Assembly: GCA_051047955.1 (NCBI GenBank)
Contig: JBPGPT010000045.1
Location: 62,001-100,423 of the forward strand
Source: Cystobasidiomycetes sp. EMM_F5
Lineage: Eukaryota
Reading direction: 5' to 3'
Length of the DNA stretch: 38,423 bases
Under the pieces are notes generated by a model, which made no database searches, was not told the DNA's origin, and saw nothing but the letters and a program-made list of their open reading frames with translations. Below, in pieces: positions 17,406 through 38,423 of this stretch. Both the position numbers and the translations under genes were made by a program. Positions within the stretch are counted from its first letter, which is position 1. The number at the start of each line of letters is the position of its first letter.

Positions 17406-18780
17406 GGCGAAAGCAGCTTCTTCGAAATCGAAAGTGGGGGTCCAAGGCGACGATGTCGAGAGCTCCCAAGCCGGACAAGCGTTTATGTGGAAGAAGCGAA
17501 AGTGAGTATATGTGGGAGGAGCAGAGCAAGAACCGCGTCGTCCAAAAGCTCTCTACAAAGTCGCGTCCAGCTGGTCGCTATCGGCCAGGCTTTTCGAAAT
17601 CACCCCTCTCTACCACGGACGAGGTTAAATTGGTCGGGAGCCCTCGCTCGGGATGATCGAGAAAGTCCCCCAGGCCCTGATCAGCTACGCGTCCTCGACG
17701 GTGGTGCCTGAATGCGACGAGGACACCATCTCGCGACTGGCTGCAGTGTGCGTACGAGGGCTGACGATGTGAATCTGCTTGCAACTACCTGTTTGACATT
17801 CAGCTCTATCCCAATCAGCCTCTCGAATTGGGTTGCAATTGCCGGTGTCAGTCAGCCTCGTTTGCGTTCCGGCCAGCTGGTCAGCTCTGCCTCTTTCCAA
17901 CGCGTCAATGCCAGCATCAGTGAGATCTGAGGGATCCGACAGATGCACAAGTGTCACTTTCGGGCGGCTTTCTTCATGTCAACATCGTGCGAGGAGTTGG
18001 TGATAATACTGCCGTCGAAGAAGACTGACCTGACCTCGCTGACTACCAATGAACATATCACATTCGTTTCAAGACTGACCTTCAGCACATTATGCATCGC
18101 TGACTGCCACAAAGACAAGCTGCGTCTCGCTCTTCTACACCTCCCCTCACGCACTGACTCTCCGCTCTCTCCACGTGTGGACCGTTGCAACTGCCTTCCA
18201 CGCCTCTTTCCGAATCCTCCCGGTTCCCGTCCGGATCTTCTGCCCGACAACACTGACTCTGCCCGCTTCCCGTCGACAAGGCGAGGCGTCGCAGAGTGAA
18301 AGCTGGCTGGATGCAGAAGCGGCACTGGCAGCTGAGGATGTCAGTGACCAGCCTGGCGACACGCTGACATGGCAGACAGTTCAGACATGCTACCCGCAAG
18401 GGCATTCATTCCGATATTCGTCGTCCTCGGTGGGCAGTGCATTCCCTTACCTTTTGCTCAGAATTTGCCAGCTGATATGACCGCGATTTGTAACCAGGCT
18501 TCTCCGTAATCGCAGCAGGCGTGGCAGTCTATGTCGTCGCAAGACGGCACAGGTTGCGTCTGCCCAGATGGAGATGGCCGTCACGGCGCCCCGCTGCAAT
18601 CTCGGTAGCGCAATCGCTCAAACAGGTCCTCGAAAATGATATACCTGAAAGTCCAATCCACACCGCCAAGACAGCTCGCATGCAAGAGGTAGTCTACACT
18701 ATCCCTCTCAGCCGACCGTGGTCGCCTGCATCCAGACCCAACTCGACCATCACTCCCGTCGGACCTGGAATGGAATGTCG

Positions 18781-18872
18781 CAATCAATCAGTCAATCAAC
18801 CAGTGCAATCGCAATCAATCAATTGAATACTGACAATCAATCAACTCAATACTGACAATCAATCAACTCAAT
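18781..18872 (+). repeat. CAAT-rich tract with two exact 22-bp units AATACTGACAATCAATCAACTC
   Basis: Units start at 18826 and 18848, preceded by CAATCAATCAGTCAATC. Confidence 0.9.
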
Positions 18873-19138
18873 GAATCCACTGCTGACGACCGTCCATCGC
18901 TTACCAACAATCGCGCGTGAAACCAGCAACTCTGTAACGACCGCGCAATCATCCGATGCGCAAGCTACGCAGCTTGAAATCCTGGTTACGGATGGCTGCA
19001 GCGTCGCCTCGCGGAAACTCGTCGCTAGCCCAGACAATGCCAGGCAATTCCGCCAACATTTGGCTAGCACAGCGCAGGTGTCAGTTGAACCCACAGTCTC
19101 GATGATGACTGCCACTCACTACCTGCAATGCCCGGGCG

Positions 19139-19600
19139 CTAGCCGCTTGTGACACCCCCACAGTCGGGTCGCGAACTTGGTGTCCTGTTCACAGAATAGT
19201 GAGCGTGCGCCACGGGTATTCTGGGTATACTCACGCCGCAGAAACGATAGTTGAACATGATTGCCACCTCACCGCAATCGCAACTGGGAAAGTGCTGTGA
19301 TTTGACAGGCGCATCCACCTTCACCAGCTGAAATAGCTCGTTGGTTTGCCAGAATGTCCCAGGTTCCTCTGCAGGTTTGGTCCTGATGATTGCAATCTCG
19401 TGAGCCCGCCAGTAGATTTGTCGTGTACGACAGTCACTCGCCATTGGCACCTCAAGAAGGCTTGCCCGTCCCGCTTGCCGCATTCCCATCGACGGGTCCC
19501 ATAGAGTTCTGACTGTGGGTCATGTCGGTGAGTGTTGCCCATGACATGCATTGGACTCACGTTCGGATCACTGATGACCTGCACCCTGCCCGGAGCCAGA
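19139..19600 (-). pseudogene. Possible relic or short gene with one MuDR/WRKY-GCM1-like zinc domain
   Basis: RRWECGKRDGQAFLRCQWRVTVVHD in one frame, then LVKVDAPVKSQHFPSC (H-x3-C) in another. Confidence 0.35.
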
Positions 19601-20568
19601 CAATCGCAATCCGGAATGCATCGCTGAGAGGAGGCTCAGTGCACCATTTTGCACCTTCCAATGACGGCTACTTGCACCAACTATTGGGATAATGGTCAGC
19701 ATTAGTAACGTAACGACGTAGCTTAGTTTTCACCTCTGTGCCAAAAAGCACGGCATAGCCCCGCATCCGTTCTAGGATTGACAGGGTGGAATTTGATGTA
19801 TTCTAGGATAGATTCGGCACATATCAATACATTCAAGGGTCACACAATTAGTCAATCAGCCTGCGTACTCCCCTCTACGCCCTGCAGTACCGCTATCCAT
19901 TCGAATTCAGTCAAGTGTCGTAAAAAAGCATGTAAGCTGCCCACCATCTTGAATGGCGTTCAGAGCGTCAGACCACCCAGCAGCTAGAATGGCCAGGATG
20001 CCATTGGGCCAAGGTCAGCCCTCTGCCATCCATAACCCCCACTGCCGCCTCACTCACGCATGTTCGGCTCATCTGCTCTGTATACAATCTGCACAGCTAC
20101 CACGCGGTCTGCTTGTACCACTCAGCCCCAGTGTCTCGTATAGCAAGCGCATGCCCTTCTACCTTCCGCATCCTTGACATATCTGACGCTGACATTGCCG
20201 AGTGCTGGTACAGTGTCTGTCGTCAAGCATGAGCCGGGAGGATCTTGTGCATGCGCAAGCGCTCACCGTCATCAATCATGCGCACGACTACGCCATCCAT
20301 GATTATAATGCAACAGTACTGCTTGCTTGATTACTCGCTTGAAAGCTCCTGATACCCTCGCTGCAATTGCCCATCAGGTGTCCATTGACGTTGAACGAAT
20401 GGGGAAGCGAGGAAGATGTTCAACCATTGACCACATTCCAGTCCCCTCGTACTGACGAGGAGCCATTCACGCTTACTTCCAGTACACCTCATCCCGCTCC
20501 ACCTGTACCTCCGCCCGAAATATCACTTCTTACACCCATCATCGACGTCCGATACGCTCTTGAATGCA

Positions 20569-23500
20569 ATGCCACCTGGAGTATCTGTGCAATTACCTAT
20601 CGGAGCGCTGCTGCCGTTCCTGCAGCTTCATGCCAATCTTCCAAATGCAGCACCTCCAGTAGCACCAATCGCTCCAGTGCTACGCGGGGTTCCGCAAGCC
20701 GAACCAGAGCAGGGACAGCAAGCGGATCAGCAGCCAGCACCCCTGGTGCAACAAGTCCCACCAGTTGTTGGAGTCGGAGCAGCGGGTCAAGCTCCTAACG
20801 ATGAGACTGCGGCACAACCACACGCGGATGAAGCACAGCCCGTAGACGCCGATATGGCTGCCAGGCTGGCAAAGATTAGTGAGGCTATCCGCCGGTGTTC
20901 GTACGCTTGCGTCTGACTCTATATTGTTCTCCAAACAGCCCCAGAGTACAAACCCCTGTTTCCATATCCAAGCTTGACCAAGGTTCAAAATCTTGCTTTT
21001 GACGACGTGCGTACAGCGGCTGTCTCTCATAGTATGCGACTCAATTCTTCTTATACAGCTTATCTCGGATTCCAAACGCAACCTCATCTTGGCCGCTCCA
21101 ACGGGCACTGGCAAGACTGACGCCATCTGCATCGCCGCGATTGGAATGCTTCAACGGAATCCAAGATCACGTATGCTGATTATGGTGCCAACCCGTCAGC
21201 TTGGTCAACAAACGGCCCAGCTGATCAGCCAGCGTCTGTCGCAATGTCAGGGGCTACACTCTGTTTGTTAGTTGAAATACCGTTTTGAATCTTTACGAAT
21301 CAAAAGCCGACGATAGCTTGCAGGCGCAGTCATCGACAGCGAATCGAGCCAAGCTGCCAAGGATGTCATGAAAAACGCTAGCGTCATGTAAGTCTTCTTT
21401 CGGAAGGCCACATCGTCGTCGCTAACTCTCGGTCAGCGTGACTAACCCAGAGAAATGGCAACACATCACCGCTAGCTTGGCAGACGCTGAGCTGAACGAA
21501 TGGATCTGCATGTTTGATCAGCTAATGTGGGTGTGTATGGTCGTGATGTCCGTTTAATCTGACCGACATCCGGCAGTTTCGACGAAGTGCATTTGATTGG
21601 AGAGCGAGAGAGAGGCCCAGCAACAGAACACGTCGTATTCCGTATGAAGCATCTCAATCCTCCAATGCGCGTAATCGCACTCAGCGCTACGATACCAAAC
21701 CCAGAAGATATCGCAACATGGTTAGGACACGACCTCTCCTTGGACGATGCACGCGTAGCAAAGGTCAGTGGGTCGAATGCACTGCTCATTGTGATCCTTC
21801 GCTGATGGCCAGAGAGCAGCACCTGGCATTCAATGACGAATATCGGGCAACGCCATTACTCAAGTGTGTTGGCCGAACATTCCGGGTGTTGCGATTGTGA
21901 TGGCTAAAGGCCGCATTCAGAATGGTTTGGCCCGTATATATCTCTCCAGCGGATGATCTGAGCTGGTACAAACGTCACCAGCGAATTATCAAGGCGTGAG
22001 CGCAAAGACCCTATTTCGATCGTACCATGCCTAACGTCGCTTCGCAGAGTCCCTCAGGTACTGCTGACTCAACCCGTCCGTCGAGATCCGCAAGGTGGTG
22101 TGCTCATTCTCGTGTCGCGCAAGGCCGACTTTGAGAGATACATGGACAGGTTGGTCGAAGGTACGCCGGCTCCGCATTGCAATCGTGATGATTGCCTAAC
22201 TTGGCGCTACAGGTCTACAAGAGGATGAAGTCAAGAATGGAAGACCGATGTTCCGCAGACCAGAGCCCGCTGAATTGATCCTCATTCAAGACGAATTGCT
22301 GAAGAGTGAGCACCAAACGCATCCACCACCACGGCATTGCGCAGCTCACTTTAGCGCATAGCCTCTCTCCTGAAAGGGTTCGGCATTCACCATGCGGATC
22401 TGCCAAAGGGCGACAAATCCCAGGTCATTCGCCTTTTCGAGGAGAAGAAAATCGAACTGATGCTATGCACCACAACATTAACTACCGGCGTAAGCAACTG
22501 CACGTCCTCTTTATTGAAACAAACTCACACTTCGGTAGATTAATCTGGGATTGAGGCTGGTCATTCTGCCGGATCCGGTAGACTGGGTCGTGAGTGTCTA
22601 CTCATGCCTACGTACGCCGCTTACATCTCCTCGCGTGACAGCTAACGCGTAGAGCAGACAAGACCGTTTCGACACCCGAGCCAATGAGTCTGCTTCGTCT
22701 GAATCAAGCAGCTGGCCGCGCTGGTCGCCTAGGTCACGCCAAAGAGGGCACAGTAGTCCTACTTTGTCCTGAGGATCAGCGACGACACTACGAAGACAGC
22801 TTTGTGCTGGGTAACACAGCGCTCGAGCCGCTGATCAGCGGGGTTAATGGCTCAATTGCCAGAGCACTCTTGAGTGAAGTCGTCCATAATTATGTCAAGA
22901 CCCAGAGCGACCTAGAGAAGGCTTTTGCGCGATTCTTTTGGGGCAGTACCGTTAAAACGTACGGCGCAAAGAAAAGACCACAACAAAATCCACAGGCTCT
23001 GACCCTAGCGAATTTCGCGGCCGATGAAGATTTGGATGCTCTCTCAGGTGTCAAAATCGTTCCAGAAGGGATGGCTGACAATCTTTACAATGCGCGTGCA
23101 GGAGCTACGCTAGTCTCGGCGACTCTGTCACGGGGGCGGTGGATTAAAGCTGCAAAGGACGGAAATAACGTCAGACTGATGCCCACAAGTCGAGCCAAGC
23201 TTCTTATCAAGCACAAGGTCGCCCTCAAAGCTTCAAACTTGTATCTAACCGGGCCAGAGTTGGCTGCGACGCCTACAGTTGAAGCCATGCATACCAAAAT
23301 AGTCAGTCAGTCAATCAAGGTGGTGCTGACAAGCAGCTGATGACCATGCAGAAAGCCGCAATGATGAGATGGGTGCAAGCCATGCCCATTTCCGAAGACC
23401 AGCAGGCGGAAACAAGCGCCATGTGGGGAAGGCCTGGTTTTGCATCAAACTTGGAACCGATGCATCAACACGACTGTATGAGCTATGGTCGCTGTACGCA

Positions 23501-23721
23501 GGTTGCAAACTACGAATCTGATGTCAGAATACTGATATACATCATACGCAGATTTGGCTGAACTTGCTAGTTTGTATTGTCGTCCGCACGAAGCAGCCGT
23601 CAAGCAATTGGTCGACTTGTAAGTGGAGTAGTGGCATGGCTACAGCACACTGACCGCTGTACTCTAGAGTCAACGAATACGGGTGTGCAGAAGGTGTAGC
23701 CGGAAAATGCTACGACTGTAA
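20569..23721 (+). CDS. Divergent Ski2-like DExH helicase (Mer3/HFM1/Brr2-type)
   Basis: FPYPSLTKVQ (Q), APTGTGKT (I), VPTRQL (Ia), TNPEKW (Ib), DEVHLIG (II), ALSATIPNPEDIATWL (III), RATPL, GIHHADL, CTTTLTTGINL (V) and QAAGRAGR (VI). Many short introns; the 3' end is approximate. Confidence 0.85.
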
Positions 23722-23977
23722 CGTAGCAGGCGGACCAGAGGACATGAGCATCGAAGCGGACTAAAGATTGGTCCCTGGGCATCTGATAGAGTTATTTTCT
23801 GAGCGACTAGCGCTGTCAAAAACGTGTACCATTAGATTACAAGCACGTCCACACCTCGCTTCTTTTTGCCACCGTCCACCGAGCGTTGTCCAAATGGACG
23901 TCGGTCAAGATCTTTGCTTTGTACCAACGTCGGCAGCTACAACCTCACAACTCAACCTCAATACCCAGTCAATCATC

Positions 23978-25068
23978 ATGACCTCAGTCAGTACACCACA
24001 GTTCTGCCATCCTGCGGTGCAGCGGCTGACGTCCTTGACACAAAACAGCGTGTCGTAGACCTCGACGCCCTGGAAGTAGAGAACGCCAGGCTTGGCATTG
24101 AGCTAGACGAGTGCAAACGCCAGAAGCGCGCAGCTGAAGATCGCGTTCGAACATTCCAAACCATCTTTCGAACAACGTTATCGAGTGTCGAGTCGGCACG
24201 GCTGCTCGCACCAATTCCACATGCAGCCGCGAGCGGTGCTACTGCTGCTGCACCAGTCGATCCTCCCCGAATCCAAGAACACCAGGCTCCCATCCCGGCC
24301 GATCCTGCAGTTGTACCGGGCGGAGTTCAAGGAGGAGTAGGAGAGGTTCCCTCTGCCGACAAAGGTAAAGGTCGAGAAGCTGTCTCACAAGCCGAGAGCC
24401 AAAATCCAGGGTCAGCGACCTCGCCGCTCTCGCCTGTAGAAGACGCTGTCGACTGGAACGCAATGCTCCTGGACGCTGACCAAGCAAGTGAGAACGCAGA
24501 CGGCCCATCTGCCCAGTTGGCCTCTTCACCTGCATCTGATGGACAGACGTTCGCCCCGAAATTCCGGTCGACAGCTGCTGCGAACCAGTCCTCTTCTCTC
24601 GCGGATTGGGGGACCCCTAAGGCTCTGTCCTCTCCGAGGGAAGGCTATGTCTGCGATTTCGAGTTATGTGGGGCATCGGCACACACGAAGGGATATTGTG
24701 CCATTTTCTTTGGCTTTGCTACAAGCTCCAATCTCCCCGGCCCCTATAACTTCTTCAATGCCATTTACGCCAGGAAGATGGACCTCAAGCAGGCGGTAGA
24801 CCATGCAAAAGCCGTTCCCCTTCGTGGTAGGGATGACAAGATCCTAAAGTGGAATGGCGAATTGGTCGGCAATTTCGAATTCGGTCGATTTGACTATGTC
24901 CATGGATCTCGAGCCGGTGTTCCTGCAGATTGGGTATTTAAGGACACAGAAACGGCGGCAGCACTTGGAGACTTCCGTGCTGCTACTTTTAAGACCCACA
25001 AGCGTGGAACAAGCGGTGATAGTACCGCGTCTTCGAGCGGCACTAGCAAGCGAGGCCGTCGAAGGTGA
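23978..25068 (+). CDS. Hypothetical nuclear protein: coiled coil, disordered linker, CCHC zinc-knuckle-like motif, basic C-terminus
   Basis: ATG at 23978, with intron 23987-24048 joining the 400-aa ORF. LEVENARLGIELDECKRQKRAAEDRV coiled coil, CDFELCGASAHTKGYC motif and a KRGRRR end. Confidence 0.7.
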
Positions 25069-25746
25069 AGTAAGAGGCGCCGTATTGGCCAGCAAACAAG
25101 AAGAGTTGGGTAGTGATAGTGTTCAAAATGTCGTAAGTTACTCAGTTCATTGATGCTCTCCTCTGCCGTTGTCAGTTTCAAATGAGAAATGTCACGCCGC
25201 CGGTTGGAGCAAAGCGGCGGGCAGAACACCGAAATGCAATGTAGTGGGTATATTAAAGATGTTTGTGGTGTACTGGAAGCTCTTGGACAGCTGCAATGAA
25301 TGTGTTTCTGCATTATTAGCGACAAGCAGAGGTGCCTGGATGCCCAAAAACGCAGCACCCGCAGGTGCCGGCGGTTTTGCGTGATAGTTACATATGTCAG
25401 TTTGTTATGTCTGCTCATGCTGGTGCTCATGACAGATTTATGCGGTGTCGACAGCTTCGGGCACAATCAACGTAAGGAACTGTACAGCTCAGGTCAGGCA
25501 CAGCGCAAAGGCGTACCGACGTCTTGCCTATACTCCTCAATCAGACAAGATAACCCTGGCGTCCAGCAGGCACCATTCAAAGACTACACGCTGCGCATCG
25601 ATTCCGTGTCAGCAAGATTACGACGCTAGCGTGAAGACCGCTTTGGACACATCAAACATAGTGAGTATGACTGGTGTGAATCCAGTGTGGATTAGCAGCT
25701 ATAGCTGATGATTCCTGCACACACATGCAGTACACTCATTCCTAGC

Positions 25747-26651
25747 ATGGCCAACGTACCGCCGCTTGTGGATGCGACAGAGCAGACGAGCTTCTCGGAG
25801 GAATTATGCCAATGGCTGGACGAAACGCAGAAGTGGGTGGATGGCGCAGGAGAGCAAGGACAGCAAGGACATGCGATAATGATATACAACCGCCTGATCT
25901 GCTTCGCCGACCTTGAAGCTCAGACGAGCACCATCAACCGAATCCTTGCATCCTACAAGGGAGAGGACGAGCAGGAACTTGTCGATACCCTCATCGAAGA
26001 TTCGAGATATTGGGTCACGGCCAAATCCTTCAAGACTGCCTTCCGGGCTAGCAGGATTTGCTACGCTCTAGTCTCCACTCAATCCAATCGCGTGTTTGAA
26101 AACACCCAAACTTGCAAGGATCTCCAAACAGCAATCTCTGCTTGCCAAGCTTCCGACACGCGGGGAAAGAAGCAAGCTGAGAAAAGGCTGGCCTTTGCGC
26201 GCGTGCAGCACAGCAAGTCGCAGGCCAATTGGCATGTGTTCGCCATGAGGTTCGCCCCAGTTGTGGATAGAAAGCGACAAGTGCGTCATATTCTCAGCCG
26301 CTGTGATAAGGCCGCGCAGCTGACCACACAAGAGAGCAGATCTTGATTTTCGACAGCAGATACAGACCCGATGCCTATCCCGAGGAAGATCAGCTGCATC
26401 GCATTACCTCTGTCGATTGGGGCAACACCGTCGTTAAGCTATTGCGGTGCATGCGGGCCAACCCAGACCGTCTTGGGGACGTAGAAATTTGGATAGGAGG
26501 TCGGGAAATCAAGCTCGCGGGTCAGAAGGAGGCGAATTGCCAGACGTCAGCTCAGGAATGGGTGCGGCAAAGAATCCAGGCGGATCTTGGACTTGTCGCG
26601 CTTGGAGACATCAAAGGCGACCCGGTGAATGGTACGCAGCTTAGAATGTAG
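25747..26651 (+). CDS. Hypothetical protein, possible Ulp1/C48-like (clan CE) cysteine protease
   Basis: Intron 26281-26339 (GTGCGT...GCTGAC...CAG) fuses two ORFs into NWHVFAMRF...RQILIFDSRY...GQKEANCQ, giving the order His, Asp, Gln, Cys. The ends are uncertain. Confidence 0.5.
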
Positions 26652-27768
26652 TGTAGAGATTGGTACGTCACGCCGACATCTTCCACGTTCTAGTAAAGAG
26701 ATTTGATGTCCGCAATAGTATCCTTTGCAGTATTCCCTCGTATCAATGAATTCGTCCACAGATCACAGAGTGCGAGTATCTTTGCATCGATCGCTGACGA
26801 GACTCACAATCCGGCCTGTAAATTGTCGAAATTGTCTCGTAATCTTCCACGGATATCCACCTTATACTGACGCACGCTGAAAGAGAAACGCAAGCGTCAT
26901 GGTTCAGATTCTGGCTGATTGCCGTACACTCTCAAGAAGGCAATACCGCGTGGACGGGCTGAATTAGGCTGCAGGATGCCCCCCGCAATGATCGAGACGG
27001 GAACTGTACTGAGTGCGTTCTTTTCGTTGTCAGCATAAGCTCAGCGTGTTCTTCCCAAGCGACAACCATTATTACACGCGAAGACTGATTGCTTACACTC
27101 TACTGATGTCTATTAATCGAATGCCAGAAGCATCCGAACGAGGCCGAATATTGATCAGCTTGCTAACTAGGTCAAAGACGTCAGGCTTTATCATATACCT
27201 CTGATCTCTGCTTGCTCGGTCACCCATGCTGCGGTATGCACCGTCGATATGCACCCAGCACCACTGTGAGCGCCCACAATTTCTCTTGATGACCCGGCAT
27301 AAGCGGGGCACCTGCAAAATCAGCTCATTAGGGTGCCGAGCGCTGGAGGAGCCTTTTCCATGGACAACTCGCTTATGTTTAACTAGCGTAAAGCAGGTAT
27401 AACATCAATGCGGTGTCCGTTGGTCGAGATGTTACAGCCACTTCAACGCATAGTGAAAACTATATAGTTGGTGCCTGAGGTTTTCCCGCCGGCTTGAGAG
27501 GTGTCCTAGCTGACGCATGTCGTTTTGTCTGAGGGATGCGCAATCATCATGGTAGATTTTATCGTAATTCGTGGGTGCGGGATCTCAGCCGACCAAGAAA
27601 GCATTGATGTAAGCTGATCAGCCAAGATCTCGGACTCGAAACGTTAATGCAAGTAAAGGCCAGCCATTTTTCCGCAACTATGGTCGTGTACCATACACAC
27701 GACGGGAGTAGCATGGCATTGATGGTCACGCAGCATTGTTTACAACGAATTTGGCCCCCCGATGCCAT

Positions 27769-28411
27769 CTATGGCTGATATACAAACTTCTTTGTGCCCC
27801 TCTTGTTGCCCTCCCTCTTGACCTCCACGTTCTTTCCTTTACTACCACCATCCTCCTCTTTGGCACCTGCCTTGGCCCTCAACTGCTGATCTACATCCCT
27901 TACCGCGCTGCTGGAAGGCTCAGGCGAGCACGGATAGCCCTCGGCTTCGTCGTAGTCGATGCCGTACTGACGGTCATAGAGCGCTGTTTCGTCTCCTTCC
28001 CACTCCCGCCACTCCTTGAGGCCGATTTCCCACTGTTCTTCCTCCCTGGCGACCTCCAGTTCGTCGGAGTCCGCCTCGCGAGGAGGAACAGAGCGCATGC
28101 GCTCGAAGGTCGCCTGCAATCATATGAAATGTAGCTCTTCAGATGATGATAACGCAAACAACGACTCATGCACATACCCGGTCGATAGCTCTCAACGAAG
28201 CGCCTGCTTCCTTGAGGCATCGAATGCCATCGGCTATCTTGCCAGCCGCTGCCGTGCATAGTCTGGCGGTGGCTGCATCGTGTGCACTCATGGAGGTTAT
28301 GTATAGGCTGTTGGTTGCCTCCAGCGCTTGAATGGATGATTTGGTCGCGTTGTTCAACGACGCGCCGGTCTCTAGTACTGGACAAGGCTCGGTAGATTTC
28401 CTGTTGCTCAT
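27769..28411 (-). CDS. Small hypothetical protein with acidic middle and basic C-terminus
   Basis: ORFs 28166-28411 and 27769-28119 are joined in frame by a GTATGT...GCAG intron (AIDR|ATFERM). The start may lie further upstream. Confidence 0.5.
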
Positions 28412-28795
28412 CGTCGACCTGTGCGTGATGTACTTGTTGACTCGACTGGATTGTTGGCTGCAAGGTCGAACTCGTCGTCAGCGTCATAGATGCCTCAATG
28501 GATGCAGTGTGACCTACAGAATGCCTTCTGCAGTATCTCTCCGTGTCCACTACTGGTGAGTAAAAACTTTCAGAGCGTCCAATGGTCGTTTGGACGTCGA
28601 ATCGACTGGTTCAGAAATTGGCAAGTTGGAAACCTCGTCACGATGTGGCAAGGCTGTCATGTCCCCCTCATACATATGAAGCACGCATGAGACAGCCGCA
28701 CTAACGGCATATCGCTACAACGAGATGCCAACTGGCCTTAGTGGACGTACATCAACAACTTCTCTGCATGGATACGAAACTAGCATTTAGTGCCC

Positions 28796-31700
28796 ATGAA
28801 TGACGGGACTACAGCTTTAAATTCAGCTCAAGTGCATCAAATCAGTCAAGCCTTTCCCCCTTCGCAGGCTAGCCAAGCGCAACAGCAGATTATCAGCATA
28901 TCTGATTCTTCAGATGATGAAGACGGCAGGGGCAACACGGCTTCCAATCGGATAGCACAAAATTTGGTTAGTGGAGCTCGGCCTGCATCTTCCGGAGTAG
29001 CGACTCCGCCTATCCATCTTCGCCAAGGGCAGATACATCGGCTCGAAGCGTCCTTGGTCACTAAGGCTCGAAAGGCTATCGCACATAGTCGCAAGCCACC
29101 GTCTGACAACACGGAGTCCACGACCAAAGTCGCCAGATTGTCTTCGGACTAACCGACGCCGTCGGCTGACATACTTATATCATGCAGAGATCCGAAATGC
29201 CCAGTCAAGATCAGTGTTTCTTATCAGTACGTAGGTTCTGGAAGTGCAGAATCGGCTAACGCTCCAGGAGGAGAAGGCCGGAAGATGACAAGCATAATGC
29301 TAGATCATCTGGAGTTTTGTGATCCTAGAAGGGCGGAGCGAGCTTCGGAAGCACATCATGCTGCTTCTTATGATTATTCACAACTTTCGGCCACGAATGC
29401 CGTCTCTGAACCGAGTCGAAATCTTCCGCCGATGCGCATAAGCAACACGGAGAGTAGTATGCCTATACCGCCTGTGCCGAACACACGTCTAGATGCAGAC
29501 GATGCCATGGACACAGATGATCCACCTTTCGGCCTCCGTATGCCCGGACCAAAACGACGTCGTCTTCTAGACGAGAGCGACTCAAAATCTCGCGATAAGG
29601 GGAAAGAACGGGCCGTCTCCCCACAAGAGGAGACGTCTCACTCTAATACCGCTGTGCCTTCTCGCAAAGGCAAAGAGCGAGCTGCGACATTGTCACCGGC
29701 CGTTCGGCCCATCGCCAAGCGTGCCCAATATTTCACCGATGTAAGCTGCCTCTTATCAGAGGGTGGACAACGAGCATCGTCGTCGTCGTCGTCGTCGGAA
29801 CAATTGACAACAACGGCCGACCTTTCAAATGCGACAATGCCACTACAGTCGGAGTCTCTCGGCCAGCCTGTACTCGCGGCGGATCGTGTTGAACCTGCAG
29901 AGGCCGTGGGCCAGCGAGCACAGGCATTAGAGCCAGTGGTTAGGGTAGTAGACGTTGATACCTCACAACCAGGACCTGCCGTCTCACTCACTTCGAAACA
30001 GCATCAAACGAAGGTGGGCCTGTGCTTCTGCTTCGGTTTTGCTTTTCTGACGCCTCAGCAACACTTAGGATGCGCTTGTCGAGTATGCGGCTGAAGCCCT
30101 GCGTATGCAGTCTGCTGACCTTCGCGAGGAATACGAAGGACAGAACGAGCAAGAGACTCTGTTGCTCAAGTGCTCGTACTGCATTGCCGCGAAAGCCCTG
30201 GTTGATCGCGGTTGGGGCATTGGCGCTCATGTTATGGCAACGGGGGACGGTATCGGCCGGTAAGTCTCGCTGGCCGACCCGGCTGCGACTATGCTGAACC
30301 CTTCATACAGGTCAGTTTCGAGGACTCACAAAAAGCATCACAAAACATGCAAGCACCCTCAATTGCTAGGAGCAGATCCATACCATACCGACACTAGTGT
30401 GTCTGATCATGCGTCGGCTATACCCACGCGGAATTCAATGGAGCCTGTGTAGAGCCTTGGGACAGAAGCTACTGCGCCCGCTGACAATCCTATTTGGCGA
30501 ACACTCTCGCTGCACGGGAGTTCTACTCAGGACAGCACAACGAGTCAGGATGTGATTGAAGCGACCCCTGACCCGCCTGTCCAGTCGAATACATCCTATG
30601 GCACTGGAACGACATCGCCTGCCTCGACCAGCGCGGGTTCATCGAAACCGTCTCTTGGTGCGATGTCCTCGTCAGAACGTGATAGCCTCCCGCCAGTAAG
30701 CCGGCTCAGCAGACCGACGTACAACGCTAGTCCCACTCGCTCCCGCTCGCCCATAAAGCCGCTCGTACCCCTTGGAACTGGAGCATACGCTTGTGCGCCA
30801 TCCATCGGTGCCAGTTTCGAGACTCTTCCGAATTTTCTGGCAGCCATTGACGCGCACTCTAGCCAAGTAAATCTAGAAGCAATTCTTACTATGGGCAAGG
30901 GCGATGCTGACAAGTTCCGCGAATACTGCACAAGGCCGACTTGCACTTACTTCTTTACGTACGAACAAGATTCTGGCGGATTCGAGGTCACTGAGGTATG
31001 TGCGGTTCATGCACATAGACTAAGTATCTGAAAAGTATCCGACGCAATGAATTTGTTATAGGTCCAGCCAGAGCACTGCGTAGAGTGTATGCAAGCTGGT
31101 TCATCTGTAGGTATAGAAAATGTTACAAGCCTGCCCCGAATGCTAAAGATAAGACTACAGATCCATATCCGTACTCCGCCGATCTCAGCACCCAATACGC
31201 GGACGGGCGCATTCAGCTTGTCGACCAATGTGAGCAGGCATTCGCGCGTGAACAGCCCTCGATCGCAACAGGCTCCTACCACCCAGAACTCGACGGGCTC
31301 ATTAGCCCAGAATGTATTCCCACCAGTCCCAAGTGCTTCTGCTAGTCAACCAAACCAAGCGGATAGGACAAGTCGAACCGAGCAATCCCGACGAAGCACT
31401 CCACGCGTCTCCACGCTCTTTAATGCACCTCGTGTGGGAAGTGTCTTTGACGCTGCTGACGAGCTAGAAAGGGCCATCAAGGCCTACTCCATCGGCGTTC
31501 ATCCGTTGGGTCGCATAACGGCCTCGCATGATGCCACAGGATGGACCTGGAGTTGTAAAACCTCGGACTGTCGATTCTCCTTTCACGCTGCCTACCTGAG
31601 CGTCATCGAAGGCTCAGTCCGCGTTGATCTTGTGAGTCGCTCAGAGCTTTGAGAGATATTGCAACCAGATTCTGAGGGTCAACCAGACGCACCCACATCA

Positions 31701-32354
31701 CGATCGGCATCGTTTAGACAGAAAGCCGTCTGAGGACGCGCCCAAGGTCGGCAATCTCTTCGGCGATCTCGAAGCATTGCAGCAGAGAATGTTCGAACAT
31801 ACGGAAAGGGTCAACCCCGGCTCTTCAGCGGGCTTAAGAGACTTCAAAGCTGCTGTGACGCAGCACTCTGAATCAGTCAATTCCGGCAGCTCTCTCAACT
31901 GGAAGAAAACAGCTACTTACATACGATGCGAGTGCAAGAATTATCATGCTGGATGTCGGTACGAATTTCACGCTGCATACTACATTGACAAGGAGTTGGG
32001 CAATAAGAGACGGCTTTCCGTCACCGATGTAAGCTACCTTCTGCTGGGAATATCATACAGCTTACCGATTCCTCATTTGCTCGGCAGGCTGTTATATCTC
32101 ATAGCACCAAATGCGGACAGGAACTGATGATTTCCGGGAAAAAGAAGATGTCGTCACGTCCCGATGAACGTCGCCGGCTGCGCACACGGTCATCAGCAGC
32201 TGCTTTCGGCACATCAGCATCGGACGCAGATGCGAGCAGTGCGGATGTTGCACCCGAGGCAGCGCCACAACCGCCTCGCAAGAAGCACACACCGAATTCA
32301 GCATCGAAATCGAAAGTCACTGCGAAGGCTCTTGCATCAATATACTGTCATTGA
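28796..32354 (+). pseudogene. Large protein with five tandem MuDR/WRKY-GCM1(FAR1)-type zinc DNA-binding domains; in-frame stops at 29150-29152 and 30450-30452
   Basis: A repeated pattern, clearest in domains 3-5: AP(S/R/K)(I/V)GxxF..., C-x4-6-C, aromatic strand, terminal H-x3-C/H (HLEFC, HHKTC, HCVEC, HHDRH, HSTKC). Linkers are S/P-rich and the introns are consensus type. Confidence 0.6.
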
Positions 32355-33021
32355 ATTGACCGCCTCAATCACCATGTAGACACACTGAATACTCTTCACG
32401 GACTGACTGGTGCATCGTTGGCCCGTCAGGAAGGCGTCTGCGTTGGCGGCTACACTTGCACTGGAAGCAGACCAGCCAACCCACAGGCAATGGTTGTACA
32501 CTATGCGCACCTCTCATTCTGACCGTGTGCCATCCTCTTGCCCATCTGGTGTACATAGTGCGTCAAATGAAAGTCGGTACCTGGCAGTACTCGAAATCCC
32601 AAAACCTGCTCCTCAGGGTGCCGGTGGATCGACTCGCGAAGCCCATATGTGCGTTGCATAGTATTAGCTAGCGTAATGCAGTCATAAAATTCATGCAATT
32701 TGCAGGGATTCGATGCCTGCAGCGAAACCGCCTTCCCAGATAAACTATATAGTCGGTGCCTGGGGGCAGGGTAGCACCGGTTCACCTTGCAGCGAGGTGA
32801 CTTGTGGATGCGCTGACCACGACATGGTTGTAAATACGGTATGCTGGCCTGTTCGCCGATCAAACTGTCCTGCCGTCAACGAGTTCCAGAGCGGAGACGA
32901 GCAGGGCGAGCTCGGCGTAGTCGAGAATGCCGCACTGCCTTCCCTCTCTCGGTCTACAGATTCGGTAGCTAGCTGACATCACTCTATCTACCTCATCCGA
33001 ATGACATGTCTGTCGGCGAAT

Positions 33022-33131
33022 AGCATTCTGAGAATCAATCAGTCTAATACTGACAATCAATCAGTTAAATGCTGACAATCAATCAGTTGAATACTGACAA
33101 TCAGTCAGTTAAATGCTGACAATCAATCAGT
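33022..33131 (+). repeat. Tandem array of five 22-bp dyad units (consensus TAAATRCTGACAATCAATCAGT)
   Basis: Directly visible. Each unit contains (A/G)CTGA-N7-TCAGT, and units alternate TACTGA/TGCTGA, giving a 44-bp higher-order period. The first unit is degenerate. Confidence 0.92.
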
Positions 33132-33271
33132 GTCTCATGCTTAAGATTCTCCACGTTCAACGAATTCTTGATAATCAACCAACGGAGGACTGGCGCTCTG
33201 CCGTGTGTATTGTACGACAATGGATCAAAGGCGAGAATGTTAACAAGAGCGAATGCCACAACCATCGATCG

Positions 33272-35151
33272 TTACTCTAAGATCAGCCAATCCGCTAAAG
33301 CTCTTGTGCCTGCTTTCCACGTCACTTGTCCCCACGCAGTTGCATCCTCGCGATACAGGGCTATTGCGTCGACTTCTAAATGTTTCTTCTTGCAGTGTGC
33401 CATCCACTTATGACAGTCACTGAAGTTAGTTTTATCTGGACAATCTGCACATATGTAAATCCTCCGAGAACGTGCGAGGCAGTGGTTGACATCCAGCGTG
33501 GAGTTAGCCCTGCCGGCTGACGGAATGTAGCCACGGAGGTTTGCATTGGCTTCGATTATCCAGGGCCATTTAATCAGGGCCTCTGCGAGTGAAGGTTTCG
33601 TACGAGACTGAGTCTCCCCCTCTTGTTCACCGTTGCCGTTTATCCCAAGTGCAGGTTCGGCTATTGGCGGCGGGGCAGACTGTAGTCGAAGGGATGCCTG
33701 TGCTGACGAGGGAGTCTGGCCGACATCGACGAGCCTTGCATTTTCGGTAGAGGGTTGCAATGACACACGTAGCGTATCAATGAATACTGCCAACCGCGAC
33801 GCGAGGCTGGGGTCATGATCCGCATTCCGTCTGTATACGGTATCTAGGTCCTGTGCAATGCGGAGAGTAGGCGATATGGCAGAGGAGCCAGTCACGATAT
33901 CGCTGATTGCCAATTCTAGCAACGATTTGAAGAACGGAAAATCGCAGTCGATATCTTGCACCTCGGCGCGTCTCTGATGAGCCTGACAATCTGAAATCAC
34001 GAGTGCTGAGGCCTCGTGAACAAAGTTCCATGTTGTTACGATGGAATTTGCTTGCGTCGTCACTGCATGAAAACACCCAGCTGGGAGATGGAGCAGACTG
34101 CCTGTCTCCACTCGAATCTGTTCAGTAGCCCGGTTCAGCCGAAGTGAGGAAGCCTTAGGTAGCCCTACGACATACCCGTTTGACGTTTTTGAACGCAGAC
34201 TCAAATTGACTCGATGAACAGTCGCTCATGCTGCTTCTGCCCTCGAGTGCAAACGCGCGCGACAAGGCGACGTACGCCTCTGCGTTCTCTCGAGAGTATT
34301 CCGCGACATAAAAGACTTTGGAGCCCTTATTCATATACAGCAGCGCTGCCGACCCAGCCTGGTCGATGTGAAAGCCAGTGCATGAGTCGGCAGGCGTCAG
34401 GCCTACGATAGGCCCGAACTTGGCCTCCTTGATCTGGTCCTCGTCCAGTGCCGAGCGGGTCTCAAATCTATGAGCCCAAGACAGCTCCTCGAGAAAGCGT
34501 GGTAGTCTAATAGCTTTGTCGTATGCCGAGCCGCCTAGGTGCCAATTTAGAGATGCGACACTGTACCCGTTTCTCCAGCAGAGAAGAAATTTGTCAATGC
34601 TTAGTTCGAATTCTCTGAACTGTGCATTGCTGTAGTCTTCGCGCTTCACGTCAGCTAGTCCACCTGCGCGTCCAAATGATTTGCGGGGCAACTCACTGTA
34701 CGCCGGAATTGATTTGGCCATATGCGGCGACACGAGATCGTTCCTGCGAAAGTCGGCGAGATCTCTGATGTCGGGAATGTGGAAGCCGCATCCTTCCAAG
34801 TCTCCATCCACGACAAAGACATCCTGGCAGTGCTGGAGGTATTTTTCAGTGGTAAGAGTAGCGGAGTCTAGATGTAGGCAGTCGAAGGCGACGGGCACAG
34901 GATAAGTTATGCTGTCACGCTTGCGTGCCATGTGCGGTCTGTTGTCCCCACAAGGGCCCAAATGACGTTCCTCCTGTTGCGTCAAAGACACTGCCACGTT
35001 GTCCAGCCCTGATCAATTTCAAGACAGCACGTTGAATAGTTAGCCAGTCCGCCTCGTCCAGCGGCAAGCAGCATCTGTCAATAAGCAGTATCTGTTAGAC
35101 CTTGTGCATCTCACCTTCAGGAGTTCGCTTCCTCTTGTTTGTGGGCGGCAT
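33272..35151 (-). CDS. JmjC-domain 2OG/Fe(II) dioxygenase (putative histone demethylase) with C-terminal C2H2 zinc finger
   Basis: SCTGFHIDQAGS (HxD), KGSKVF (2OG-binding Lys), LPAGCFHAVTT (distal His) and WNF. C-terminal CADC-x14-H-x4-H. N-terminal MPPTNKRKR NLS. A GTATGT...CAG intron joins the two ORFs. Confidence 0.85.
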
Positions 35152-35734
35152 GGCAAGGTCAGGTTTGCTTGACGACAAGCCGTCTAGAGCTTTTGCTCCG
35201 TGTCAAATCATGCACGGCGAAATACAAAGGCATCTTGACACGTCTACGTAGCGTGAGCAACTAGTACTTCAGTGATTTTCAGTAAAGAAGCAAACGTTTA
35301 AACGCGTTAGTCGGCTCGCATTGCTGTAGCATTCCGATCACTTGCGGCTGTTTGCCATGAAAACCAACGACAAGGCTGGCAGACGACCTACTGCTGCAGT
35401 TATGATGAAGACAACGACTGATCTATGCATATACGACTGTATTATGTAGACTGCCAGAAGCTGCTGGCGAGCTGGGCTCAGCGTTGGTGCGTTCTCTATG
35501 ACAAGTTCGCAGCCAGACTTCTCCGTTGACTGGCTTTATTACTCCAGTACATAGCTTTCTCGACTGTAGAAGACTTGGCTTGATGGATTCCTTAATCCTC
35601 TGACGGATCTTTGCGCACTAGCAAGCGATGCAGCTCCGCGAAGGTCCGGAGACGATCCGTCTGTAGGATTCAGATATGCGGCCGTCGCTGCTTGCTACAT
35701 CATCATTATCCAGTCGGTTCTGTCGGCCCGGCCG

Positions 35735-36175
35735 CCTCCTCTCTGCCTCTGTCTCCCTCGCCGCCGGTCTTCGCCTCAGCTCCCCTCTGCTCCAGGCTGG
35801 CCAGCTCTTCTCCACTCCGTCTCTCCCTCGCCCTCTCACTCACTGCCTCTCCGCTCCTACTCCCCTCTCAGAGCTGGTCAGCCTACTCTCTGCCCCTCTC
35901 CTTCTCGCCTCGCTATCTCCCTCTCGGCCTCCCTCTCCTTCTACGCTCGAGACTGGTCAGCCTACCCTACTCCCTACCCTCTCACTCAGTCCGCTCCTCC
36001 CTCTTACCCCTCCCTCCATCTCTGCCTCTCCTCTCCTCTTCACGCTAGGCTTGGCCAGCCAGCCCTTCCCTTCCTTTCCTCCTTCCCTCCCTCACCTCTC
36101 TCACTTCCTCACTCCCCTCCCATTCTCTCACTCCCCTCACCTCCTCACCTCCTCACCTCCTCACTACCTCACTTC
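35735..36175. repeat. About 440-bp polypyrimidine/polypurine tract with recurrent (C/T)TGG(T/C)CAGC motif
   Basis: Almost exclusively C/T on the + strand. The motif occurs at 35797, 35874, 35953 and 36051. Confidence 0.8.
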
Positions 36176-36179
36176 TATA

Positions 36180-36500
36180 GTCAGCTTAGCTGACTCAAGT
36201 CAGTCAGTCAATCAATCAGGCCAATACGGTCAATCAATCAGGTCAATCAATCAAGCGAGTAAGTACAGTCAGCCAATCATCGCCATCCAATCAAGCTAAT
36301 GCTGTCATTGGTGCAAGCAGATGCGGTACTGCCAGCGTATTACTGACACCGCGTCAGTAGAATACTGATGATCAATCAGGATATTACTGAAAACGGTGCA
36401 GTAAGATACTGACAATCACTGAGGAAAAACTGACAATCAGCGAGTAAAATACTGACATCTGCTCAGTAATATACAGCCATTCAGTCGGTGAAATGCCGAC
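36180..36500 (+). repeat. GTCAATCAATCA cluster followed by a degenerate 22-bp-phased ACTGA-N7-(T)CAGT array
   Basis: ACTGA starts at 36342, 36364, 36386, 36408, 36429 and 36451, with decayed units at 36473 and 36495. Confidence 0.85.
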
Positions 36501-36542
36501 TTTTTCTCAAGATAGCAGTCCCGCTCGTTTGTAATAGCACAC

Positions 36543-36594
36543 TCCTAATGACGCAGCCTGCGCCATTAGGACGAGCCTGCGCCATTAGGACGAG
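36543..36594. repeat. 14-bp-arm inverted repeat overlapping a 19-bp direct duplication
   Basis: TCCTAATGACGCAG (36543-36556) and CTGCGCCATTAGGA (36558-36571) pair with one mismatch. AGCCTGCGCCATTAGGACG occurs twice from 36555. Confidence 0.85.
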
Positions 36595-37189
36595 TAGATG
36601 GACCTCATCGCTCTAGTACAAACATGTATCAATGCTGCTGCTCGTGGATAGGATTGCTCATTCAATGTGAGCTTGCAACTGTCTTTGCTGCATTCGCTCC
36701 CTGCTTGATTGCCATCTAGTCGGTTCCTACTGTGATCAGTGCCGCGCGGCGCTCGCCTTTTTTGGACACCCAACAACCCAATGAAGCATGAGCAATGAGT
36801 GCTGCACGACCAGATGATGCTATGAATCAAGATGCTCCTGGAATTTTTCGGACGAGCTGGCATGATACGGCCTTGCTGGCGATTACGCGATGACATGGTG
36901 AGCGTGGTGCAGGACCATCAGTAGACAAAGTAGACAAAGGTGAGCTGACGTCGGTCATACGCGACAGCACCGTCTATGCACTCTCGCTCGCGCTTAGGCT
37001 TCCCATTCCCGCTCTCTCTTCCGGTCAGCTCGCTGTCTTCTTCGGGTTCTGGCTGCCCTAGCCTGGTATTAGCGGAGCGAGACAGCCCGCAGTGAGCACG
37101 AGCGGAGCAAGTGGATGTCACGGCCCGTCGCCATGCACGGTGCAGCACCCATTGGTGGGCTACTGGCTAGCCAGCTGAACTGACTTCAA

Positions 37190-37295
37190 GCGAGTCAATC
37201 AATCAAGGTCAGTACTCACAATCAATCAGGGTCAAGCAGGTCAATGAAGCCTGGCTAATACGATCAATCACTTCATCAGATTAAATACTGTCAGA
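37190..37295 (+). repeat. Fourth, decayed cluster of the CAATCAATCA/ACTGA motif family
   Basis: AGTCAATCAATCAAG, TACTCACAATCAATCAGG, GATCAATCA and AAATACTGTCAG. Confidence 0.65.
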
Positions 37296-38423
37296 CAGCT
37301 TGGCGAGGCAAGGCTCCTGCCGTCAACCATGGCGGCCATAATTCCAAGCACTGGTGTGAGTTATGACTGGCAGTGACGGCCTTGATGACATCGCTGACTC
37401 TGTTAATTGTGGTGACAGCCGTGCTGAGAGTCTGCAGTGCTGGACTACTGACCCAAGAGAGCGCGGGCAGTACTGTGCAAGCAGAGTCTGCCATCGAGGG
37501 CCGGGCGGCATAGGAGAAGCTAAGTAGCTGAGCGCGATATGCTCAAAGTCCAGATACTGTTGAAGCACGGCTAATCATGCTTCAGTTTACACTCACAGCT
37601 AGGCTCTAGCCTGGGTGGACTGCCGTTCAAAGACATGCGGCTTGACAAGTCAGCTGAAAGGGATGGTAAGCGTCCTATTGAAGGACGTGCATGCATTCTT
37701 GACAACTTAAGCTGACTGCTATGCCACTCTGCGATTCTAATAGGCGACTGGTGTATGGTGGAGATCCAGTGCTGAGCTGAGAGCGACGACGCACTGCCAT
37801 ATGCAGACATACAAGCATACGCAGCTGTGAGTGACAGGTCCTTTCTTGCTCTCGCTACAACAGCTGACTCTGCTTCTTGTCGTGACAGATCGTGTTCAGC
37901 GTCCGCGGAGGAGAGAGGAGCACAGATGAGCTTACTAGCGTGTCTGGCAACAGCAATGGAGCGGCAGGCCTTATAGGTCAGTCCACGATTGCCGTATCGA
38001 CGGATAAGAGTGAATCTGGGCTGATGATACGACCGCCTTTTCTTCTGTGCCACCGTCGATTCCCAGTGATGCAGGCAGCATGCGAGACTTCGATACGTTG
38101 GGCCGGAGTATCAGAAGTAAGCCTGTATAACTCCCATATCCAATTGCGTAATCTGACATGGCATTCTTCACCTGCAGATATTGGCTAGCAAGGGGCGGTG
38201 ATGACGGACAGCGAGGCAAGGTAAAGCGGCAGCCGCAAGGTAACGTTTGTCTAGTAGCCGGTCATCCTGTAGTGGTCAGCACAATATAAACAACACTTCT
38301 TCTTGACCGGATCTGCTATGGCGGTCTTTGTGTGGACGGTGTGGATTTGTCTCGCTGGCTCGGAGGCGGTTCCTGGAGGACCGACCGGACAGACGACCGA
38401 ATACTCAGAAACCGTCTATAGAT

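Follow-up and report, generated by a model that had tools for sequence, protein, structure and literature searches.

The fungus Cystobasidiomycetes sp. EMM_F5 carries, between about 18.8 and 37.3 kb of a 38,423-nucleotide stretch of contig JBPGPT010000045.1 (the window; contig positions 62,001 to 100,423, forward strand), a gene-sparse segment that we call the island. It holds a Ski2-like helicase gene, a gene with several WRKY-GCM1 zinc modules, a JmjC gene, further open reading frames (ORFs) and clusters of a 22-bp repeat. The genome announcement (PMC12697161) reports an 18.6-Mb SPAdes assembly from 2 × 151-bp reads in 253 contigs, with a GC content of 52%, 6,580 genes predicted without the use of RNA evidence, 58% coding sequence, and no sister taxon among 27 Cystobasidiomycetes genomes. 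All gene models below except the public model P0006 were built with our own dynamic-programming exon chainer and are approximate. The window is of fungal type, with short host introns (about 50–65 nt) that use GTRNGY donors, CTRAY-like branch sites and YAG acceptors.

A shortened WRKY-GCM1 paralogue

The multi-module WRKY-GCM1 gene lies on the plus strand at 28796..32354 and corresponds to the public protein P0006 (970 aa, 11 exons), which the window encodes exactly, with 969 of its 970 residues lying in exact 12-mers of the plus-strand frames. Its modules are of the type used for DNA binding by Mutator-like elements (MULEs). The Pfam family DBD_Tnp_Mut, with a cut-off of 25 bits, scores 22.8 bits on the window exon alone, 29.3 bits on full-length P0006 and 34.3 bits on its paralogue P0007, and the WRKY-GCM1 DNA binder named in the original prediction is thus borne out on the full protein. 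P0007 is a 1671-aa protein encoded on a separate, 556,640-bp contig (locus tag EMMF5_002785), and over aligned columns they share 91% identity. Searched with a profile of the Pfam-positive module, P0007 shows four clear modules of about 75 aa. P0006 shows three and a fused one, in which a deletion has linked the first part of one module with the last part of the module that follows; upstream there are further Cys-rich modules. Compared with P0007, P0006 is missing two modules as well as about 230 residues at the N-terminus and about 190 at the C-terminus.

Comparison of P0007 with the window by TBLASTN also revealed two in-frame stops within well-aligned coding sequence. The first is a TAA at 29150-29152 (VARLSSD*PTPSADILISC, where P0007 has VARSSSGGPTPSADILISC) and the second a TAG at 30451-30453 (NSMEPV*SLGTE, where P0007 has ELVTPVLSVGTE). 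The public P0006 model cuts out both stretches as introns of about 72 nt (about 29114-29186 and 30397-30467) with the weak donors GTCCAC and GTGTGT, both stretches are coding in P0007, and the first of these odd introns also takes out a Cys of the first zinc module. The other eight P0006 introns are canonical and 51-108 nt long. One of the annotated introns, at 29741-29848 (108 nt, GTAAGC...ACAG), is open in frame here and homologous to P0007 coding residues of about 680-712; instead of an intron it may be coding sequence that has been kept. The annotated 970-aa P0006 protein may not exist as such.

The gaps in the P0007 alignment sit at the canonical introns of the window copy, and therefore the intron positions appear to be shared and the duplication would have been at the DNA level; a retro-copy origin of the two paralogues was considered and set aside in view of these apparently shared intron positions. 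From these comparisons we conclude that the window copy is, to judge by its sequence, a decaying and shortened paralogue. The 91%-identical paralogue, the shortening of the window copy and the two stops hidden in odd introns of the public model are new here. A metagenome scan with the P0006/P0007 alignment gave 597 pattern matches, none of which was confirmed by tblastn.

The portions of Babu et al. 2006 (PMC1702500) available to us describe stand-alone WRKY-GCM1 ORFs and ORFs with three to four modules in fungi, and interpret them as derivatives of MULEs that serve as raw material for transcription factors, with repeated recruitment in fungi. The pair described here is like the ORFs in those portions in having several MULE-type modules and no transposase domain and in being multi-copy in a fungal genome. 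It is unlike them in that no Mutyl-like termini or autonomous partner were seen here, in that the host is a Pucciniomycotina yeast and not Yarrowia, and in that the window copy has two stop codons.

The helicase, the JmjC gene and the remaining frames

The helicase gene occupies 20569..23622 on the plus strand (14-15 exons, a 732-745-aa model, with an uncertain 3′ end). Its separate exons match the Pfam families DEAD (6.9e-13), ResIII (3.9e-8) and Helicase_C (E 0.003, below the curated cut-off). The exon with the DEVH and SAT motifs matches Brr2 (5.8e-14), ASCC3 (1.1e-13), Hel308 (1.5e-9) and Slh1 (1.6e-9) in the PDB, and more weakly Ski2 (about 1e-4) and Mtr4 (about 5e-3), so the Ski2-like assignment made earlier stands. 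A single spliced model, open throughout and with introns of about 50-60 nt, contains the motifs GTGKT, (T)NPEKW, DEVH, SAT and QAAGRAGR in this order; the exon bearing motif I was recovered only after the branch-site scoring of the exon chainer had been relaxed, and the intron at 21007-21059 was recognised by eye. The gene looks intact. It resembles the Brr2/ASCC3/Slh1/Hel308 branch in its core motifs, including (T)PEKW, and differs in being a single cassette of about 740 aa with a Pro/Ala-rich N-terminus and no detected Sec63 domain: the 233-aa C-terminal ORF has no Sec63 match at E ≤1 in Pfam and no match in the PDB. It is not an obvious orthologue of Brr2, ASCC3, Slh1 or Hel308. A long ORF follows on the same strand at 23937..25068 (P0001, frame 23836-25065), whose N-terminal part is coiled-coil-like, whose middle is of low complexity and whose last 120 aa or so are rich in Cys. 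It represents either a gene of its own or the 3′ exon of the helicase gene; Pfam found nothing significant in it, and an AlphaFold2 model of 24580-25065 was unusable (mean predicted local distance difference test score 35.5).

The JmjC gene lies on the minus strand at 33272..34931 and has two exons and a 534-aa model of the PHF8/KDM7/PHF2 class. Its best PDB matches are a KDM7 homologue (3.2e-4), PHF2 (8.7e-4) and PHF8 (6.4e-3), and the spliced model aligns over both exons to the PHF8-like proteins P0011 (61.3 bits) and P0012 (50.5 bits). In these alignments FHID, GSKVF and CFHAV of the window protein stand opposite FHAD/FHID, GHKIF/GWKLF and YFHAV/WIHAV, the sites of the iron ligands (HxD and a distal His) and of the 2-oxoglutarate Lys. 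Because the three strings fall on the iron and 2-oxoglutarate ligands, the enzyme looks catalytically competent; the gene itself looks intact. Pfam JmjC_2 and Cupin_8 each score 13.1 bits on the second-exon ORF (33275-34225), under their cut-offs of 22 and 27.4, and the first-exon ORF matches no Pfam family. The product most likely serves either as a lysine demethylase of the 2-oxoglutarate/Fe(II) type or as a chromatin factor like Epe1; Epe1, the fission-yeast anti-silencing factor, belongs to the JHDM1/PHF2/PHF8/KDM7 class. The window protein shares with that class its best PDB matches and the aligned HxD, Lys and distal His, and is unlike it in its great divergence (about 3e-4 to the PDB), in having no detected PHD or other reader domain, and in an unusual C2H2-like motif near its C-terminus.

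That motif, C-x2-C-x14-H-x4-H in P0004, was found by eye, and Pfam reports no zinc finger at E ≤1 in ORF 33275-34225; of the JmjC-C2H2 protein put forward originally, the JmjC part is upheld by the PDB matches and the ligand alignment and the C2H2 part is not. A further protein, P0009, is an 85-aa fragment 52% identical to the JmjC protein over 61 residues (JmjC residues 10-70), and therefore at least one relative of the gene, a paralogue or an orthologue, exists. At a point where the window gene is uninterrupted, P0009 seems to continue into an intron.

Two more gene models complete the island. A three-exon plus-strand ORF of 351 aa at 25417..26651 had been called a Ulp1-like protease, and its family is unconfirmed. 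An H/D/Q/C pattern (WH..FDS..Q-x5-C) was read by eye in ORFs 25705-26343 and 26310-26648, which would put the catalytic residues on two exons in different frames. In exon-level, unspliced queries the two ORFs gave no C48 match in Pfam, chance-level rows in the PDB (E 0.25-0.4) and, apart from one weak DUF7730 match (0.83, under the lead threshold), nothing usable in the Atlas. The proposed “anti-silencing kit” leans on a competent-looking JmjC protein and a protease call without tool support. The other model, an acidic two-exon ORF of 193 aa on the minus strand (27769..28411), shows no recognisable family in Pfam.

The 22-bp repeat arrays

Tandem Repeats Finder detects arrays with a period of 22 bp at 18812-18872 (2.8 copies, 94% matches), 33028-33131 (4.7 copies, 87%) and 36341-36474 (6.1 copies, 67%). 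Two related arrays have periods of 13 (36195-36253) and 23 (37186-37245). The 15-mer core, with up to two mismatches allowed, occurs 12 times, on the plus strand only and always at or beyond 18830 (the mean in shuffled sequence is 0.14, and 0 of 100 shuffles reach 12). CAATCAATCA likewise occurs 12 times on the plus strand and not at all on the minus strand, with no copy left of 18781. The four same-strand clusters of a single repeat family in the original prediction are therefore real and lie in intergenic places, and the family is confined to the right half, as had been stated. Self-BLASTN of the window gave nine pairs of high-scoring segments, array-to-array without exception, and no other repeated DNA.

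All arrays read on the plus strand. Array 1 (18781..18872, about 3-4 units of CTGACAATCAATCAACTCAATA type) lies in the 3.8-kb gene-free spacer between the divergent membrane-protein and helicase genes, and array 2 (33028..33131, 4.7 units, CTGACAATCAATCAGTTAAATA) in the gap where the 3′ ends of the WRKY and JmjC genes face each other. The spacer from the JmjC gene to position 37330 holds array 3a (36195..36253, GTCAATCAATCAGG units spaced 22 and 13 bp) and array 3b (36341..36474, six degenerate 22-bp units in which CAGTAnnATACTGAC is kept and the CAATCAA part is variable). Array 4 (37186..37290) has irregular units and ends about 40 nt upstream of a possible ATG at 37330, with a GTGAGT intron after it. 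Array 3a is bordered on its left by a CT-rich low-complexity tract (35950..36175, plus strand) with 8-bp CCTCACTT-type and 8-, 16- and 19-bp CCTCAC-type repeats, and the ratio of observed to expected CpG is 0.69 in 36-38 kb, compared with 0.9-1.08 everywhere else in the window.

The consensus of 14 units is AAATACTGACAATCAATCAGTT. Young arrays are conserved over the entire unit, while the array at 36341-36474 is degenerate, its CAATCAA part having drifted and CAGTA-nn-ATACTGAC having been kept; the kept core is palindromic (CAGTA / TACTG). Single-strand folding gives z-scores of -2.3 (33021-33140), -3.9 (36334-36480) and -2.4 (36186-36300), and shows no hairpin excess at 18776-18885 (+1.1) or 37170-37300 (+0.1). 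The description of these repeats as dyad arrays hence fits those at 33028-33131, 36195-36253 and 36341-36474 and does not fit arrays 1 and 4. A metagenome scan for two adjacent repeat units returned no loci, and a literature search for the 15-mer core found no publications.

The 7-mer TCAATCA occurs in the whole window 30 times on the plus strand and twice on the minus strand, where about 2.3 per strand are expected from length alone. Of the plus-strand copies, ten fall outside the arrays, including four in the housekeeping half (4855, 9697, 11783 and 14829), and one copy stands 47 nt upstream of the ATG of the GGACT gene, beside CAGTAGTCAGTTAGTCAG, which resembles arrays 3a and 4.

The palindromic core kept by the older units, its spacer drifting, and a 22-bp period equal to two helical turns are features that would suit a domesticated regulatory locus. 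A WRKY-GCM1 protein, either the intact paralogue acting in trans or a shortened local product, would there bind the arrays, which lie in spacers flanking these genes, and co-regulate the helicase gene, the JmjC gene and their neighbours. The units also contain TGAC, the core of the plant WRKY W-box, but the specificity of a MULE-type WRKY module is not predictable from plant WRKYs. Repeated recruitment of MULE WRKY-GCM1 domains as fungal transcription factors, as described in the available portions of PMC1702500, gives this proposal a precedent. The local copy has two nonsense codons, however, and one array, flanked as it is by two 3′ ends, is not placed where a promoter would be; all told, such a locus seems to us distinctly unlikely.

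Each 22-bp unit also includes TACTGAC, which resembles a fungal branch point, with a CAG 11 nt downstream, and the arrays look like stacked intron 3′ ends. Arrays 3a and 4 contain donor-like GTCAGT/GTAAGT strings, and the 50-nt helicase intron at 23302-23351 opens with GTCAGTCAGTCAATCAAG, a string common to the arrays. One could imagine from the unit and donor-like strings that the arrays are transcribed elements acting at the RNA level, as repeats of untranslated regions or introns that offer tandem splice sites; host introns do use CTGAC/CTAAC-type branch sites near a YAG, and the arrays are sense to the nearest plus-strand genes. This is a post-hoc reading of short motifs, though, array 1 is 1.7 kb upstream of the helicase ATG and array 2 is 670 nt beyond a stop codon, and we consider it highly improbable.

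Mobility and status of the island

To the left of the island, Pfam searches of 119 stop-to-stop ORFs of at least 70 aa identified ordinary genes: GGACT (4.9-5.4 kb), a ThiF-type E1 (6.6-7.9 kb), Sec1 (8.2-10.0 kb, minus strand), an ECH_2 hydrolase (11.4-13.1 kb, minus strand) and MAP1 (zf-C6H2 plus peptidase M24, 13.5-15.0 kb, with the gene end near 15.2 kb). A four-exon membrane-protein model from the exon chainer has its 5′ end at 16788 on the minus strand. The earlier placement of the end of the housekeeping genes at about 17.4 kb is roughly right, since MAP1, the last gene that Pfam recognises, ends at about 15.2 kb and the membrane-protein model at 16788. From 16800 to 20500 (about 3.7-3.8 kb) there is no convincing gene model or Pfam match; several ORFs of 100-190 aa in this spacer have Arg/Ser-rich, non-protein-like translations. 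A second gene-free spacer of about 2.3-2.4 kb runs from the start of the JmjC gene to the possible plus-strand gene at 37330. The window contains no tRNA genes and no Rfam family at gathering score. Near its left end, a single-exon 467-aa ORF (1945-3348, plus strand) has an F-box-like N-terminal string, LALPDDVLVEIITHF, seen by eye, and no Pfam match at E ≤0.001.

In composition the island resembles its surroundings. GC content is 0.49-0.57 in both halves, and the left half and the island have observed/expected CpG ratios of 0.985 and 0.941, respectively, and equal densities of TCG/CGA and TTG/CAA. Third-position GC is 0.50-0.65 in the island genes, 0.51-0.61 in five pooled left-half models and 0.68 in a sixth that is cut at the left end of the window. 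Relative synonymous codon usage in the island and the left half is correlated with r = 0.90, and the introns of the island genes are of host type, in the same style as those of Sec1 and MAP1. There is no signature of hypermutation, because the CpG ratios are similar and the TCG/CGA and TTG/CAA densities equal.

Three other identities for the island were considered and set aside. The equal TCG/CGA and TTG/CAA densities in both halves speak against a hypermutated repeat of the kind left by repeat-induced point mutation, native composition and codon usage speak against a horizontally acquired island, and no homeodomain or pheromone-receptor genes of a mating-type locus were seen.

Direct searches for the machinery of mobility were negative. 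Among 393 (102+148+143) stop-to-stop ORFs of at least 35 aa between 17.1 and 38.4 kb, Pfam found no transposase, reverse transcriptase, integrase or recombinase, although a scan by ORF could miss a domain divided among very short exons. Only DEAD, ResIII and DBD_Tnp_Mut reached E ≤0.001; below curated cut-offs were Helicase_C, PhoH and AAA_19 (in the DEAD ORF) and isolated matches to Vp24_capsid, HopW1-1 and HNH_3. No MULE DDE transposase was found in these ORFs, in P0006 or in P0007, which have the DNA-binding domain only, and no transposase-like Pfam match in 17.1-38.4 kb that could represent an Academ DDE transposase near the helicase. Starship-like giant cargo elements have a tyrosine-recombinase “captain” gene at one end, and no recombinase or integrase match was present up to 38.4 kb. 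MULEs have long terminal inverted repeats (TIRs) and target-site duplications of about 8-11 bp; no long TIRs were detected, the best inverted pairs being 25-27 nt with 72-80% complementarity (around the WRKY gene and over 16.8-38.4 kb), and all arrays are direct and none inverted. Together with self-BLASTN, these searches agree with the original reading of the window, in which no catalytic transposase and no termini had been found. The evidence in the window leans against a currently mobile unit.

We think it unlikely that the island represents one copy, old or inactive, of a large composite DNA transposon, with the genes as cargo or machinery, the arrays as putative subterminal or internal binding sites, and the transposase and termini outside the window or lost. 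Such an element would account for a multi-copy, decaying DNA binder with the DNA-binding domain of a MULE transposase, for orphan genes and for a repeat family limited to the island, but it has to accommodate the lack of a transposase-type domain in the 393 ORFs and of TIRs. Elements with TIRs have their subterminal sites inverted at the two ends, whereas the arrays here are all direct. Native composition and codon usage also speak against it, as does the contrast between a supposed DNA binder that is broken and helicase and JmjC genes that look intact. Limited searches found no paralogue of either of the latter two genes.

Published DNA transposons do provide partial parallels. AcademH elements combine a transposase with a superfamily 2 (SF2) helicase, have 9-10-bp target-site duplications (TSDs) and are low-copy in Basidiomycota, according to the sections of PMC10045372 and PMC10799480 that we could consult. 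The island is like them, in a comparison by description only, in that a fungal locus whose content is related to transposons includes an SF2 (DEAD/Helicase_C) helicase, and unlike the elements described in those sections in that no Academ transposase, TIRs or TSDs were found in the window. The accessible part of PMC12730594 describes TET/JBP dioxygenases in 11 transposon lineages, including lineages in Pucciniomycotina, and SET enzymes on DNA transposons of oomycetes. The concept of an enzyme of 2-oxoglutarate/Fe(II) dioxygenase fold carried by a transposon against silencing, and the host subphylum, are the same as in that part of the paper; the enzyme here, in contrast, is a JmjC protein of histone-demethylase type and has no linked transposase.

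A bolder proposal sees the island as one copy, perhaps by now a relic, of a large DNA element of Cystobasidiomycetes, of a kind not yet described, that moves, or once moved, the helicase, the JmjC protein and the poly-WRKY binder as a unit. The arrays would be putative landing pads of the binder. A transposase or recombinase would be encoded close beyond the edge of the window, or would belong to a family that Pfam does not model, candidates being the Cys-rich ORF at 23.9-25.1 kb and the ORF at 25.4-26.7 kb. We regard this as very doubtful.

On balance we favor, with moderate confidence, the reading that 18.8-37.3 kb is a native, gene-sparse, lineage-specific fungal chromosome segment and not a demonstrably mobile unit. 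It would hold an intact divergent helicase gene, an intact divergent JmjC gene and two or three ORFs without a known family, together with a transposon-derived multi-WRKY-GCM1 gene that probably arose by DNA-level duplication of the longer paralogue elsewhere in the genome. The window copy of that gene would since have been decaying, with two nonsense codons acquired and two modules and its N- and C-terminal parts lost. The 22-bp arrays would be a local minisatellite family whose older copies keep the palindromic core CAGTA-n2-4-TACTG at a spacing of two helical turns. This core and spacing are what would be expected if a sequence-specific DNA-binding protein occupied clustered sites as a dimer along one face of the helix, and the arrays, placed in intergenic spacers, are most likely cis-regulatory or boundary elements.

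Several observations weigh against a native segment. Relatives of the island genes are almost undetectable. The WRKY exon, used as a protein query, matched only P0006 and P0007, both hypothetical proteins of this genome, and the JmjC exon matched six proteins at E ≤1e-3 among 1.84 billion representatives, one of them itself (its own ORF call P0008, the fragment P0009, the chance-like repeat protein P0010 and the three PHF8-like proteins P0011-P0013). Searches for longer homologues found none for the JmjC exon and none for the 233-aa C-terminal ORF of the helicase (against proteins of 409-2000 residues), both of which are weak evidence. Rapid divergence, gene sparsity and repeats confined to the island also suit a transposon-derived or accessory region, and a transposase could lie to the right of the window. 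The single-copy status of the island, moreover, we infer from the assembly: a near-identical second copy presumably does not exist, because the short-read stretch is unbroken within a 100-kb contig.

If the island were after all a mobile element, it would be the first known transposon to carry a JmjC histone demethylase (a literature search turned up none) and would extend the theme of transposons with enzymes of epigenetic marks, such as TET/JBP and SET. If the favored reading holds, the 22-bp palindromic site array is well defined and could be used for finding the putative binding protein. On that reading, too, the public gene model is corrected, in that the 970-aa WRKY protein depends on two atypical introns that skip in-frame stops, and the two paralogues offer a clear case, in a barely sampled class of yeasts, of a MULE-derived multi-WRKY family between duplication and decay.

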